A DNA stretch of 64,000 nt from Escherichia phage 92CQ: sequence record PV682554.1, one strand, 5' to 3'. The notes under the pieces are model-generated. The model did not search any database, had not been told where the DNA came from, and saw nothing but the letters and a program-made list of their open reading frames with translations. The position numbers and the translations under genes are program-made. Below, piece after piece: positions 53,691 to 57,514 of the stretch. Numbering within the stretch: position 1 is the first letter of the stretch; every line of letters begins with the position of its first letter.

Positions 53691-53960
53691 CTAAAATGAT
53701 TCGTTTGTCTCCATAATATATTGCATTTCCAAATCTTCCATATGTTTCTTAAATTGGTAAACAATTTCCGATGGGGAAATATCTATATCAAAAAGTTCTT
53801 TTGTACCAGAATAAAACCTAATACCATCAACAATAAGACCACCATAATAATCCCAATCACTTTCTCGTGAGAAAGGATTAGGTTCTTCATAATAGTAATC
53901 TACTTCAACAATAATAGGTTCTTTATTATCTTGTTTATACTCAAAATCAAAAGTGTTCAT
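53691..53960 (-). CDS. hypothetical protein
   Basis: 89-aa ORF. Confidence 0.4.
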   Translation of the reverse strand: MNTFDFEYKQDNKEPIIVEVDYYYEEPNPFSRESDWDYYGGLIVDGIRFYSGTKELFDIDISPSEIVYQFKKHMEDLEMQYIMETNESF

Positions 53961-54904
53961 TATAAATCCTCGATAAGCAGTCTGCGGGTTTCATTTAAAT
54001 CATCAATATTGTAGTTATCTCTTACATACTTAGCAAGAGCTAATCCTTTCTCAATACAAACATCAGGAGATTCGATTAAGTATTCTACAATATCTTTCCA
54101 CTCTTTAACTGAATCAGCAAAGAAGATTAGATCTTTAAATTCTTCAGTATAATAGTTCTCCCGTGGTGAACAAACGAGTGGCAAACCTTTAGCACCAGCT
54201 TCAAGAATTTTTAAATTACTTTTGGCATTATTAAAATGATTATTTACTAACGGAGCTATGGAGATTTGATGACCATCGTATGCTTCCATATAACACTCAT
54301 AAGGACGAATACCTTCATAAACACAATCTGGTTGAATATCTTCTTTAATTTGCAACCATTGAGCACTACTTAACTCTTCGTGATCTCTACGAAATCCACA
54401 TAAAGTTAAATCTTTACCAAAACTAGGAAGAATAGCTAAATCATGTTTATGTGTTTCACTTCCCGCCCAAACTAGTGGACTTTTAGAATAACGGTCTTTC
54501 GTAAGAACAAACTGTCCTTCATCAAAAGGTAGTCCGTTAGGCACAATATGTACATTATCATTGTATTGGCTTAATTCAACCTTTAATGCTGGAGTTGTTG
54601 TAGTTACAAGATCGCTTCTTTCAAGGAACCATTTTAGGTCATCTCGGATTTGATTTTCAAATAATCCCTCAAGCATATGCCCTTCAGGAATAATTAAAGA
54701 ATCATCCAGATCCATTACCAATTTAAACCCAAGTTGTTTAAGAGCCAGGAAACCTGGCTTTCCACGGGTTGGTACTCCATTGAACACAAAAATATTATGC
54801 TTAGGATTAATGGTCAGTTTGCGTTTATATGGCAAAATGATTCTATGAAAATCACATACACTATACTTTTCATTTCCGCGTGTGTCAAGAATAATATTAG
54901 GCAT
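53960..54904 (-). CDS. glycosyltransferase, GT-B fold (paralog 1)
   Basis: 314 aa; C-terminal motif SIAPLVNNHFNNAKSNLKILEAGAKGLPLVCSP resembling the GT1/GT4 nucleotide-sugar binding region; paralogous to upstream gene. Confidence 0.5.
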   Translation of the reverse strand: MPNIILDTRGNEKYSVCDFHRIILPYKRKLTINPKHNIFVFNGVPTRGKPGFLALKQLGFKLVMDLDDSLIIPEGHMLEGLFENQIRDDLKWFLERSDLVTTTTPALKVELSQYNDNVHIVPNGLPFDEGQFVLTKDRYSKSPLVWAGSETHKHDLAILPSFGKDLTLCGFRRDHEELSSAQWLQIKEDIQPDCVYEGIRPYECYMEAYDGHQISIAPLVNNHFNNAKSNLKILEAGAKGLPLVCSPRENYYTEEFKDLIFFADSVKEWKDIVEYLIESPDVCIEKGLALAKYVRDNYNIDDLNETRRLLIEDL

Positions 54905-54915
54905 ATCGCTCCTTA

Positions 54916-55890
54916 TTAAAGACTTTCAATAACTTGACGACGCAGTTCATTGGCATCTGCAAGATTATAATTAAGACGAACGTGTTCTGCAAGCATCATA
55001 CCACGATCTTCTGTGTATCTAGGGTTTCTCATTAGCTTCACAACTTCATAATGCCAAGATGCTTTAGAGTCTGCATAGATAACAGCCTTTGCATCTACCG
55101 GATTGAAGTACGGCAGCACAGGAGAACAGATAATAGGAAGACCCTTTGCACCTGCTTCCAAAATCTTCAAATTGCTTTTACAGTTGTTGAAGTCATTATC
55201 TACCAGAGGAGCAATTGCAATACTGTGACCGTCATACACAGACATATACTCACCTAAATTTTTAATAGCTGGTTTATACTGTGCATTTGGAATTTTACGT
55301 TTTACTTTAACCCACTCCGCAGTAGTTAGATACTGACTATTATTTCCAACAGGTGCAGAAGGATACACTTCATACCCTGCAATTGTCAATAGTGTATCAT
55401 CAAATGTATTAGCTACAAGAGATAAATCAGGTTCATGGCTTGCTCCTCCAGCCCAAATAATAGGCGTGTCAGAATAACGGTCTTTTGTCAAAGTAAATTG
55501 ACCTTCGTCGTAAGGTAGTGCGTTTCTAATAACGACAACATTACGATTTAAATGACGAATTTTGTAAGCTAGGTATTCTGTTGTTACTGTAACAACATCT
55601 GCTAACTTAACCATCTCTACAATAGTCTTTGAATGATTAGTAAATACGCCAGCCATATAATGTTCAGGATTAAGTGAATAAAAGTCATCTAAATCAACAA
55701 TAATCTTAACACCTTGTGCCTTCAGGCGTTTAACTTCGTCTGCTCCATGAGAATACACTCTATTAAAAACTAAAACGTCTTTCTTAGGTTTAAACGTATT
55801 TCCAGCAAATGGCATTACAATACGATGGTAATCACAACCACTGCCTAACTTATTATCACACTTAAGTACAGGAGTATTAGGATTTACCAT
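54916..55890 (-). CDS. glycosyltransferase, GT-B fold (paralog 2)
   Basis: ORF track 54916-55929; probable start ATG at 55890 after GAGGAGG RBS; motif SIAPLVDNDFNNCKSNLKILEAGAKGLPIICSP. Confidence 0.5.
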   Translation of the reverse strand: MVNPNTPVLKCDNKLGSGCDYHRIVMPFAGNTFKPKKDVLVFNRVYSHGADEVKRLKAQGVKIIVDLDDFYSLNPEHYMAGVFTNHSKTIVEMVKLADVVTVTTEYLAYKIRHLNRNVVVIRNALPYDEGQFTLTKDRYSDTPIIWAGGASHEPDLSLVANTFDDTLLTIAGYEVYPSAPVGNNSQYLTTAEWVKVKRKIPNAQYKPAIKNLGEYMSVYDGHSIAIAPLVDNDFNNCKSNLKILEAGAKGLPIICSPVLPYFNPVDAKAVIYADSKASWHYEVVKLMRNPRYTEDRGMMLAEHVRLNYNLADANELRRQVIESL

Positions 55891-57514
55891 ATTTTTGAGC
55901 CTCCTCATAAGAGATAAAAGTTTTACCATTGCGAAGATCCTCCAGTGATTGTTTATATTGTTCCCAGTTTACACCAATCCCCTGTTCTTTCTCTTCTTTT
56001 GACAGATTCGCAAAAGGTAAAGGATTATCTCCAAACACATCGTCAGGATGGATAAACGCCATAATTCGAATAGGACATGGTACGCCTGGAATACCTCGGT
56101 TCAAACCTGCCAGCGGAACGCGCTGAATCCACTCTGCATCTTCATATCCATAACCGTGGGTGTATGAGCGGAAATAGCCAGCTTTCTCAATAACTGCACG
56201 GGAATACATACCAAACTGGCACATCCCTAGTTCCCAAATAACCACTTCCCCTTCAATACCTTTTACTTTATCTTTAAAGTATTCAGGCATACCAAAGAAA
56301 TCCCAACCATTTTCCTTCGCCTGTTTTACAAAATATGTTTCCCAACCTTGAACAACAGGATAACAATCATCATCAAAAATAAACCAGTAATCATACCCTT
56401 CATCATAAAACTTTTTCATCAGTTCATTACGAGCATATGCAACACCTTTTCGTTCCCGATCATACTGTACAACAAAAGTAGCATTAGGATCAGTCACAAG
56501 ATAATCTTTAAGAGGACGCTTACCTACAGTAATAACACCAACACCAATTTTTGTATTTTCCAAATAGTCAAGGTTTTTGGTAATACGTGTACAACCGTCA
56601 GAAGTCAAACCGTCAACTTGAGTTTCCCAAGTACCGTGAATATTTCGGAACAATGTTGTTACACCTTTTGGTTCATTAATAATGATTGCCATAACAAGTT
56701 TAGGATCGATAACAGACATAATCTTTTCCTCAATACCCTCTGTAATAACATTATTGCGCACAATATTAATTGCATCTTCTTGTACAGTAAGAACACTTAC
56801 GTTCTTAAGAGTATATACCTGCTGTGTAGTGTAAATGATACGAACATAACTTACAGAACGAGTAGGCACAGGTTTACGCGGTCGGCGAAAACGTGGTTTT
56901 GGTGAAGATTCAGTTTTACTTTCATCTTTTGAATAATACTCCTCAAACAGTTTAGTAAATGTTTTTACATCAACTACAAACCGATCTTTCCGATATGGAG
57001 AATTCTTATGTGCACCATTAATACCACTGTTTTCATCGAAGAAAGTAATGTTTTCTTCAGTTGAATACATTAGATAATGATCTGCATTGTTCCAATGTGG
57101 TTGTGGACAACGAGAATTACAAACGGAAAGCAGATAATTAATATTTTCTTTCGTGGCCTCAGTATCTAGGAAACACGTATTATGCACAGTCAGTTGTACT
57201 TTTTCAGCCATATCCTTTTCTTTATCCTCATTGGTAAGATATTCAGTACGAAGAATTTCCAGAAAATTTTCAGGTGTTACTTCCATAAATGTATATTCAG
57301 GATGAAGTTCCATATATTCAAATCCACAACCATCTAATTGCTGTAGAAAGTTAGGGTAGAAGAACAAATCATTAACACTGTGAATCAGATCATTGATTTC
57401 TGCTTCAGTTGTGTAACCAAAACTTTTGTGAATTGCCTCGTTAAGAATATGCAGGATACCCATCTCTTCTGCTGCTTTTTTAACTTCCAGTTTATTAGCG
57501 TAAAATGCAATCAT
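55877..57514 (-). CDS. two-domain protein with C-terminal GT-A fold glycosyltransferase (DXD-type)
   Basis: 545 aa; C-terminal half has YDYWFIFDDDCYP (DXD-like) in a GT2-like context; N-terminal half unassigned. Confidence 0.5.
   Translation of the reverse strand: MIAFYANKLEVKKAAEEMGILHILNEAIHKSFGYTTEAEINDLIHSVNDLFFYPNFLQQLDGCGFEYMELHPEYTFMEVTPENFLEILRTEYLTNEDKEKDMAEKVQLTVHNTCFLDTEATKENINYLLSVCNSRCPQPHWNNADHYLMYSTEENITFFDENSGINGAHKNSPYRKDRFVVDVKTFTKLFEEYYSKDESKTESSPKPRFRRPRKPVPTRSVSYVRIIYTTQQVYTLKNVSVLTVQEDAINIVRNNVITEGIEEKIMSVIDPKLVMAIIINEPKGVTTLFRNIHGTWETQVDGLTSDGCTRITKNLDYLENTKIGVGVITVGKRPLKDYLVTDPNATFVVQYDRERKGVAYARNELMKKFYDEGYDYWFIFDDDCYPVVQGWETYFVKQAKENGWDFFGMPEYFKDKVKGIEGEVVIWELGMCQFGMYSRAVIEKAGYFRSYTHGYGYEDAEWIQRVPLAGLNRGIPGVPCPIRIMAFIHPDDVFGDNPLPFANLSKEEKEQGIGVNWEQYKQSLEDLRNGKTFISYEEAQKYGKS

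Follow-up and report, generated by a model that had tools for sequence, protein, structure and literature searches.

A glycosyltransferase operon of Escherichia phage 92CQ: a candidate for glycosylation of phage proteins and the scar of a deletion

Here we examined three consecutive genes in a stretch of 64,000 nucleotides from Escherichia phage 92CQ (sequence record PV682554.1; the whole stretch is called the window below). The phage is an Escherichia coli myovirus of the phi92-like genus Justusliebigvirus, and the window is 99% identical to PATM and EmilieFrey. A sequence-only reading had identified the genes as two paralogous GT-B glycosyltransferases (GTs) and a GT-A fusion, and had suggested sugar modification of DNA bases or, as a second option, virion or host glycosylation. 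The GT assignment of the three genes was upheld by Pfam, PHROG, AlphaFold2 (AF2) and Foldseek. As to function, we tentatively favour, at somewhat less than even confidence, a glycan which is not on DNA and is built on one or several phage proteins. The second option fits the evidence better than DNA modification, and the acceptor is probably not DNA.

The region appears to be a conserved glycosylation operon of the Stephanstirmvirinae, in which a small GT-A enzyme with an Asp-x-Asp (DXD) motif is followed by two GT4-like GT-B paralogs. The three enzymes would be translated from a single, tightly packed and partly overlapping transcript and would act one after the other, assembling a short glycan from nucleotide sugars. 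A plausible donor would be dTDP-L-rhamnose, made by the phage's own Rml genes outside the window. Virion O-glycosylation in mycobacteriophages points, by analogy, to one or several phage (virion) proteins as the most likely acceptor.

Two GT-B paralogs and a GT-A enzyme

The listing of open reading frames (ORFs) contained the three consecutive minus-strand genes as they had been described (53960-54904, 54916-55929 and 55877-57514). The region is composed as follows:

53691..53960, minus strand: conserved small protein of 89 residues (phrog_4240, E 8e-35), last gene of the co-directional array
53960..54904, minus strand: GT-B paralog 1, 314 residues, GT4-like (phrog_7162; Pfam Glyco_trans_1_2; AF2 and Foldseek)
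54916..55929, minus strand: GT-B paralog 2, 337 residues from the ATG at 55929 (phrog_7162; paralogy)
55877-57514, minus strand: chimeric ORF of 545 residues (ORF listing)
55877..56563, minus strand: GT-A portion of the chimera, residues 318-545 (phrog_2456, E 2e-78)
56564..56566, minus strand: deletion junction, codon TAT (Tyr317), with the break between 56564 and 56565 (alignment to the EmilieFrey and PATM flanks)
56567..57514, minus strand: gp194-like portion of the chimera, residues 1-316 (phrog_15930, match over 1-316 of 316)

The start of the 89-residue gene overlaps the stop of GT-B paralog 1, and the 5' end of GT-B paralog 2 overlaps the 3' end of the GT-A reading frame. Scans for promoters and terminators gave no signal above shuffled controls.

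The two smaller proteins are paralogs, as had been proposed: the 314- and 337-residue sequences are 40% identical over 324 columns (BLASTP, E 7e-82). Their common motif, given as SIAPLV(N/D)N.FNN, was found in both, yet the 337-residue copy reads AIAPLVDN and not SIAPLVDN. Both matched phrog_7162 (paralog 1, E 4e-145; paralog 2, E 7e-149). In Pfam, Glyco_trans_1_2 recognized the 314-residue protein with 26.8 bits (cut-off 25); the 337-residue protein scored 14.9 and 17.9 bits, under the cut-offs. NCBIfam had no match for any of the three proteins. Single-protein sequence searches of the PDB returned nothing useful for the GT genes, and profile searches marginal GT4 matches only and no match for GT-A; therefore, a fold search was needed for fold assignment. 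The AF2 model of the 314-residue protein, computed with 35 homologs, had a mean predicted local distance difference test score (pLDDT) of 94 and a predicted template-modelling score (pTM) of 0.92, and consisted of two Rossmann-like domains with an inter-domain cleft. Foldseek against the PDB yielded 230 matches at E<=1e-3. GT4 enzymes of the GT-B fold ranked highest (E ~1e-9), i.e. ManT (7qsg), TreT, GlgM, BshA, PglA, MshA, SdgB, GtfC/Gtf3 and TarM, with template-modelling (TM) scores of ~0.6. This confirmed the GT-B-like assignment.

In an alignment of 35 members 15 columns were invariant in both GT-B paralogs and in all relatives, and both copies therefore look functional. E235 of the sequence ILEAGAKG was invariant in the 35 GT-B sequences, as were the nearby K228 and S229; eight residues before E235 stands Ala or Cys. 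A protein identical to the 314-residue GT-B is in GenBank for PATM, EC_OE_11 and BME3. Many annotations of paralog 2 begin 13 codons downstream, which results in 324 residues, and label it 'putative disaccharide synthase' (EmilieFrey) or 'glycosyltransferase' (phi92 gp164). The former label, suggestive of an LpxB-like enzyme, found no support, LpxB not being in the top 50 fold matches.

A DXD-type GT-A signature had been seen in the C-terminal half of the 545-residue ORF. Indeed, YDYWFIFDDDCYP is present there and its DDD is invariant in the family. FDDD (D381-D382-D383) was invariant in 18 GT-A family members, and a pair E458-D459 was conserved. In PHROG, residues 320-538 of the ORF match the whole of the GT family phrog_2456. 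The AF2 model was confident for this part (pLDDT ~90, residues 320-545), and Foldseek matched it to the GT-A enzymes STIV A197, TarP, WrtF and B4GALNT1, in keeping with a GT-A fold, a single Rossmann-like domain with Asp-x-Asp after beta-4. Thus, structure prediction furnished GT folds of both kinds, GT-B and GT-A. The GT-A portion corresponds to the stand-alone 228-residue GT-A of relatives (phi92 gp165, bas61_0048). Its TTG start codon is at 56561-56563, and it is 100% identical to the copy in PD114.

A deletion between two separate genes

The 545-residue protein had been understood as an evolved fusion of GT-A with an unassigned N-terminal domain. This was refuted. Local blastn of the window versus PATM revealed a gap of 15,875 bp at the break between 56564 and 56565 (PATM 73377-89251), by which two normally separate genes were joined. 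Otherwise the window was collinear with PATM except for the tail-fibre cassettes and small differences in the tRNA cluster, and both flanks of the junction were 99% identical to relatives. In EmilieFrey bas61_0076 (hypothetical, 316 residues) and bas61_0048 (putative GT, 228 residues, TTG start after an AAGGAG site) are 15,879 bp and 27 genes apart. The two halves were contiguous in none of 56 related records; in 55 relatives the left part reaches only to the start of GT-A, and ~15.9 kb lie between it and the right part. At the junction the stop codon TAA of the gp194-like gene is changed to TAT (Tyr317). Its first two bases are those of TAA, the third stems from the sequence ahead of the GT-A start, and the TTG of GT-A follows in frame. 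There is essentially no microhomology, and one extra A in the run would break the frame.

The deletion took 27 genes, the gp194-like stop codon, the terminator and the GT-A ribosome-binding site. In relatives the missing segment encodes a fourth putative GT, a SleB-like hydrolase, TerD/TelA-like proteins, a macrodomain protein, a phosphoribosyltransferase, a HAD phosphatase, an AAA protein and the anaerobic ribonucleotide reductase (NrdD and NrdG). A strong terminator is positioned behind the gp194-like gene in these phages, inside the segment. With neither this terminator nor a ribosome-binding site of its own, GT-A can be produced only as the C-terminal part of the 545-residue chimera, which we regard as a putative GT. 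With 100% identity to the PD114 copy, the GT-A portion marks the deletion as recent.

The architecture of the chimera is not shared by homologs: 20 of 20 GT-A homologs are stand-alone proteins of 210-240 residues. Likewise, in 37 distant relatives of the gp194-like protein the shared region is always C-terminal and is never fused to GT-A. The 545-residue protein was absent from a collection of ~15 billion proteins in which both GT-B proteins are present in identical form, and a 26-mer across the junction was not found in IMG/VR or JGI metagenomes. In the sequence itself the fusion is real, but it arose by chance in a single genome or, possibly, in a single assembly. Could the fusion or the whole deletion be an assembly or sequencing artefact, or a laboratory-selected mutant instead of a feature of natural populations? 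In phage stocks, the loss of long stretches of dispensable early genes is a common outcome of selection. The uniqueness of the junction among records and metagenomes would agree with this, as would its location in an A-run, where the window has CCAAAT and a join by TA-microhomology would give CCAAAAT and a frameshift. On the other hand, there is no repeat at the two ends which an assembler might collapse, the flanks are collinear with and nearly identical to those of relatives, and blastn did not find the deleted segment elsewhere in the window. We therefore consider such an origin rather improbable.

The gp194-like portion, residues 1-316, is a complete stand-alone protein of the Phi92_gp194 family of phi92-like phages according to phrog_15930. 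Pfam and NCBIfam had no match for it. Its relatives form one full-length cluster at 90% identity (316 residues) and one cluster of 204-residue fragments. As the members of the family hardly differ in sequence, the AF2 model was unusable (pLDDT <50) and no fold was assignable. Neither Pfam nor NCBIfam supports the PHROG label 'ribonucleotide reductase' of these 316 residues; probably, it arose from the position beside nrdD in relatives.

Candidate acceptors of the proposed glycan

In IMG/VR GT-A has 358 relatives. For the module counts 80 of these loci were fetched, and counts of genomic context refer to 35 dereplicated distant loci (individual loci are designated L plus number). A GT-B of the same family was the immediate same-strand neighbour of GT-A in 68 of the 80 loci; in L049 it was a few genes off. 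Near relatives have GT-A followed by GT-B, distant ones GT-B followed by GT-A, and duplication of the GT-B is limited to Stephanstirmvirinae-like loci. The neighbours in the distant loci were Glycos_transf_2 (17 times), FkbM methyltransferase (9 times), other GT2-like proteins, TylF O-methyltransferase and DUF5672. Glycan-type genes were followed by terminase and portal genes, with replication genes upstream. Among the 25 most frequent families on either side there was no hydroxymethylase, TET/JBP or other base-modifying family. Single loci were instructive. L008 combines GT-B, GT2 and another GT-B with a sugar epimerase, a radical SAM protein and a DegT aminotransferase. In L011 GT-A/GT-B is immediately preceded by a sugar dehydratase and followed by a small protein, primase-helicase and PolA, with TelA, TerD and PRTase_3 nearby. 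In L010 (5712-11819), a small metagenomic siphophage, the GT pair is located between the major capsid gene and the head-tail connector, and the Burkholderia homolog L006 adjoins an invasin-type adhesin. Judged by predicted gene content, this set of neighbours is the signature of a stepwise oligosaccharide assembly, sometimes with methylated or amino sugars. As a side observation, an array of a 160-residue protein, GT-B, GT-A, a 230-residue protein, FkbM and TylF methyltransferases and GT2 recurred in L046 (8105-9760), L058 (1086-2735) and L082 (5187-9774). In two distant loci the 160-residue protein is fused to GT-B; neither the 160- nor the 230-residue family has a Pfam match.

A tblastn search with GT-A matched 81 Mycobacterium phages, mostly Cheoctovirus (cluster F1). 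In hhalign GT-A was aligned with the N-terminal catalytic domain of the 536-residue GT Bobi gp102 (probability 99.2%, E 1e-19, 194 columns), and the motif FDDDCYP is common to both. By tblastn and hhalign GT-A thus is homologous to a GT of a genus with glycosylated members. In mycobacteriophages the glycans reportedly depend on phage GTs and are attached by O-linkage at the C-termini of capsid and tail-tube subunits. For the cluster F1 phages Che8 and Rita glycans on the capsid are mentioned in PMC11256854, which cites Freeman et al. 2023.

As to the sugar donor, RmlD, GT-A and GT-B were distributed alike in the phage database (for each, 106 Escherichia records from Justusliebigvirus and Phapecoctavirus), and the Rml genes were located in EmilieFrey, outside the window. 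A complete dTDP-rhamnose pathway was described for phi92-like phages (PMC7552041). The co-distribution of Rml and GT genes would fit a dTDP-rhamnose donor.

Two side observations concern protein tails. The sheath gene (18167-19573) ends with a C-terminal tail rich in Ser, Thr and Asn, NRTANSQNSNSSTVSS (window 19523-19570), which is hypervariable among Stephanstirmvirinae: it is NRTSSSTTSNSSTTSS in FKP3 and NRTATTTSTNSNTTTVSA in 05F01, and ESCO13 stops at NRTAN. O-glycosylation of this tail is possible. Of the 20 proteins of L010, exactly three have -TT at the end: the major capsid protein, a 78-residue protein just upstream of GT-A and the tail tube. These ends resemble the C-terminal glycosylation reported for mycobacteriophages. 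A C-terminal Ser/Thr tail as a general acceptor signature was abandoned, as it did not generalize (exception ESCO13, no overall enrichment).

Several points weigh against a glycan on phage proteins. No acceptor was identified, and no glycoprotein data for any phi92-like phage were in the literature reached. The Bobi gp102 ortholog may be only a candidate for the virion-glycosylating enzyme. In this group of phages the GT genes are in the early/replication region and not in the structural module. The sheath tail is absent in Phapecoctavirus ESCO13, which carries the GTs; [ST][ST] protein ends were not generally enriched, and the search for Ser/Thr tails produced anecdotes only. The co-distribution of Rml and GT genes could equally reflect shared ancestry within one subfamily. 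Further, GT4-like enzymes typically are retaining, whereas transfer from dTDP-beta-L-rhamnose usually is inverting; rhamnose as a GT-B donor is uncertain for this reason.

Alternatively, the enzymes might remodel a glycan of the host envelope, i.e. the lipopolysaccharide core, enterobacterial common antigen, the NGR glycan or capsule, and so block superinfection or re-adsorption to debris. The fold matches to enzymes of lipid-linked and wall glycans (PglA, TarM, TarP, PimA/PimB, WrtF) would agree with this, dTDP-rhamnose made by the phage would suit an O-antigen-like chemistry, and surface glycans are the receptors of these phages (PMC11990801, PMC8594841). The soluble GTs would act on undecaprenyl-linked or lipid A-core intermediates. 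Yet in no locus seen was a flippase, polymerase, ligase or membrane-anchoring partner beside the module, and in L010 the GT pair is inside a head-gene module. Known phage Gtr systems belong to temperate phages and have membrane components. Taken together, we consider envelope remodelling unlikely.

Still less likely is another intracellular target, such as a nucleoside-like metabolite of a Ter-type cluster (phosphoribosyltransferase, HAD, TelA/TerD), an RNA such as tRNA, or a host protein. There are precedents: GT4-/GT2-type enzymes glycosylate queuosine in eukaryotic tRNA, and a GT-B enzyme rhamnosylates elongation factor EF-P in some bacteria. In relatives and in the distant L011 the GT genes are close to TerD, TelA, vWA-TerF and PRTase_3, and several truncated genes resembling YqeY or aminoacyl-tRNA synthetases (aaRS) are present together with a large tRNA cluster. 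However, Ter-type genes are not conserved beside the GT pair outside this lineage, the genome of 92CQ apparently lost the Ter-type cluster and keeps intact GT sequences, and direct evidence for such acceptors is lacking.

The least supported of the candidate functions is a transfer of rhamnose or another sugar to hydroxymethylated or otherwise activated DNA bases as a protection against restriction, which we hold to be very unlikely. Olsen et al. 2020 had already raised the idea, and existing restriction data do not favour it; rhamnose glycosylation of hydroxymethylated nucleotides in phi92-like phages was proposed in 2020 (PMC7552041). It would be in line with the location of the genes among replication genes, with the Dcm-like and Dam-like methyltransferases and the dTDP-rhamnose pathway of this phage group, and with a weak, sub-threshold similarity of GT-A to Pfam TAGT and to phrog_842 (the T-even second glucosyltransferase). 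TAGT (PF20691) scored 22.8 bits against a gathering threshold of 27.5 and covered 66 of 205 profile positions. T6-type TAGT adds the second sugar to glucosyl-hydroxymethylcytosine (PMC13390438). In the viral structure library GT-A matched GT2-like and GT25-like proteins, and TAGT-domain proteins only at ranks 24-28. The similarity to the mycobacteriophage GT (E 1e-19) is far stronger, and no TET/JBP or hydroxymethylated-base partner accompanied the sub-threshold score. T4 alpha-GT and beta-GT were not in the top 50 Foldseek matches of the GT-B model, and distant phages have GT2 enzymes and sugar O-methyltransferases beside the pair.

Published restriction data speak against DNA modification as well. 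Few phages are restricted by BREX; PATM (99.4% identical here, with the full set of four GTs) and Pau belong to these, with a restriction of seven logs, and were not targets of BrxU (GmrSD) (PMC8565348). BrxU cleaves DNA with 5-methylcytosine, 5-hydroxymethylcytosine or glucosyl-5-hydroxymethylcytosine (PMC8565348), and in later tests DNA with arabinosylated cytosine was cleaved as well (PMC13390438). The phi92-like BASEL phages (Bas60-62) were 'exceptionally susceptible' to restriction-modification (RM) systems 'despite a putative dTDP glycosylation machinery' (PMC8594841). These near-identical phages, from which and not from the 92CQ genome the data derive, thus lack the T4-type pattern of resistance to type I-III systems and BREX with sensitivity to type IV systems. 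A modification of low density and site specificity would, however, escape the published restriction tests. As had been stated, there is no hydroxymethylase in the window, and neither TET/JBP nor a hydroxymethylase was found in the window or among the annotations of relatives. Instead of a ThyA-family dCMP/dUMP hydroxymethylase of the T4 type, PATM has a sole thymidylate-synthase-like gene, outside the window, which matches ThyX (TIGR02170, E 6e-9). No TET/JBP is beside the Dcm-like gene, the neighbourhood of which was examined and not the whole genome; the three ORFs there have no Pfam match. Positive evidence for sugar modification of DNA bases was not obtained, and the BREX, BrxU and RM data, ThyX and the neighbouring genes count against this part of the earlier reading.

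Gene neighbourhood and comparison with known systems

The 4-kb region matched 56 phage records, best PATM (99.4%), PD114 and EmilieFrey/Bas61 (99%). Adjacent genes in the window are:

51906-53678: primase-helicase, flanking the GT genes
57532-57966: YqeY-like gene, beyond the 545-residue ORF
57979-58551: class-II aaRS-like gene, a fragment of 190 residues, adjoining the YqeY/GatB-like gene

Farther out on the YqeY/aaRS-like side are a MazG-like gene and a UvrD-type helicase. The location of the GT genes between primase-helicase and the YqeY/aaRS-like genes, which had been taken as the usual place of DNA-modification enzymes, is correct for 92CQ, but the adjacency to YqeY/aaRS is unique to this genome, since relatives have 27 intervening genes. 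A gene for 83-92 residues in the position of the 89-residue gene was seen in L007, L011, L013, L015, L022 and L024, with homology to the window protein shown for L013, L015, L022 and L024 only.

Some observations in the surroundings are of independent interest. EmilieFrey has two further 'aminoacyl-tRNA synthetase-like' fragments elsewhere (bas61_0187 and bas61_0198). The UvrD-type helicase (window 58810-60585) has no intein here; in JohannJBalmer, PD114, PHB05, ECGD1 and W22 it carries one of ~1 kb. Compared with PATM the tRNA cluster (window 6233-6240, 4291-4797) has small insertions and deletions and is devoid of a ~400-bp HNH endonuclease gene (PATM_043). The tail-fibre or tailspike segments 31982-33961 and 44574-45449 have no near match in PATM; they are exchangeable receptor-binding cassettes typical of Justusliebigvirus. 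Window genes were also matched by 'Campylobacter phage' records (MG065639, MG065689, MG065650, MG065676), A150 and A110a with 98-99% amino-acid identity (phi92-like) and B15 with ~76%, in the phAPEC8-like range. Probably, the host labels of these records are wrong or reflect contamination.

What would follow from glycosylated phage proteins? In the most specific form of this reading, phi92- and phAPEC8-like coliphages would attach a short glycan, possibly with rhamnose, to the proteins of their virions by means of the GT-A/GT-B/GT-B operon and phage-made dTDP-rhamnose, a proposal which we rate as rather unlikely as a whole. If true, phages of Gram-negative bacteria would thereby have their first system for virion glycosylation, and the GT-A/GT-B pair with its 358 IMG/VR relatives would be a widespread core module of it. 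Large coliphages, broad-host-range candidates for therapy, then would join mycobacteriophages as phages with glycosylated particles, and glycan shields could alter neutralization by antibodies and particle stability. A narrower, practical lesson is that what looks like a new 'fusion enzyme' may have been left behind by a large deletion. Provided that 92CQ is a viable phage, growth may also be possible without ~16 kb of the early region, to which the fourth putative GT, the Ter-like cluster and the anaerobic ribonucleotide reductase belong.

The closest known counterparts are the GT genes of phi92-like and phAPEC8-like phages (phi92 gp164/gp165; EmilieFrey bas61_0046-0048; PATM_092-094). The proteins are 98-100% identical, in equal order and beside the same primase-helicase. 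Unlike the window, these phages have GT-A as a separate 228-residue gene with its own ribosome-binding site, with the fourth putative GT and ~15 kb of other genes upstream of it. In dozens of GenBank genomes the genes are already annotated as glycosyltransferases, with a putative function.

The GT-B proteins share with the retaining GT4 enzymes (MshA, BshA, TreT, PglA, ManT, SdgB, GtfC) the fold of two Rossmann domains (TM 0.55-0.64) and probably the second Glu of the EX7E region, to which E235 would correspond. In contrast, the first Glu is not conserved, identity is 12-17% only and the phage protein is shorter (314 compared with 360-500 residues). For GT-A the best match among solved structures is STIV A197 (2c0n, E 8e-5), also a small single-domain DXD GT-A encoded by a virus, but an archaeal one, with 19% identity over 138 columns. 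To our knowledge, the acceptor of STIV A197 is not established. The T-even DNA GTs and TAGT likewise are phage enzymes of GT-B and GT-A type near replication genes, with the weak TAGT similarity over 66 residues as a link. They differ in that the phi92-like score is sub-threshold and lacks a hydroxymethylase or TET partner, and phi92-like relatives behave as phages with unmodified DNA in BREX, BrxU and RM assays. Finally, the GTs of the F1 mycobacteriophages (Cheoctovirus) are larger, two-part proteins from temperate siphoviruses of an actinobacterium; a GT4-like GT-B partner was not seen there. What both groups have in common is a homologous GT-A domain in a phage-encoded enzyme with further GTs alongside.

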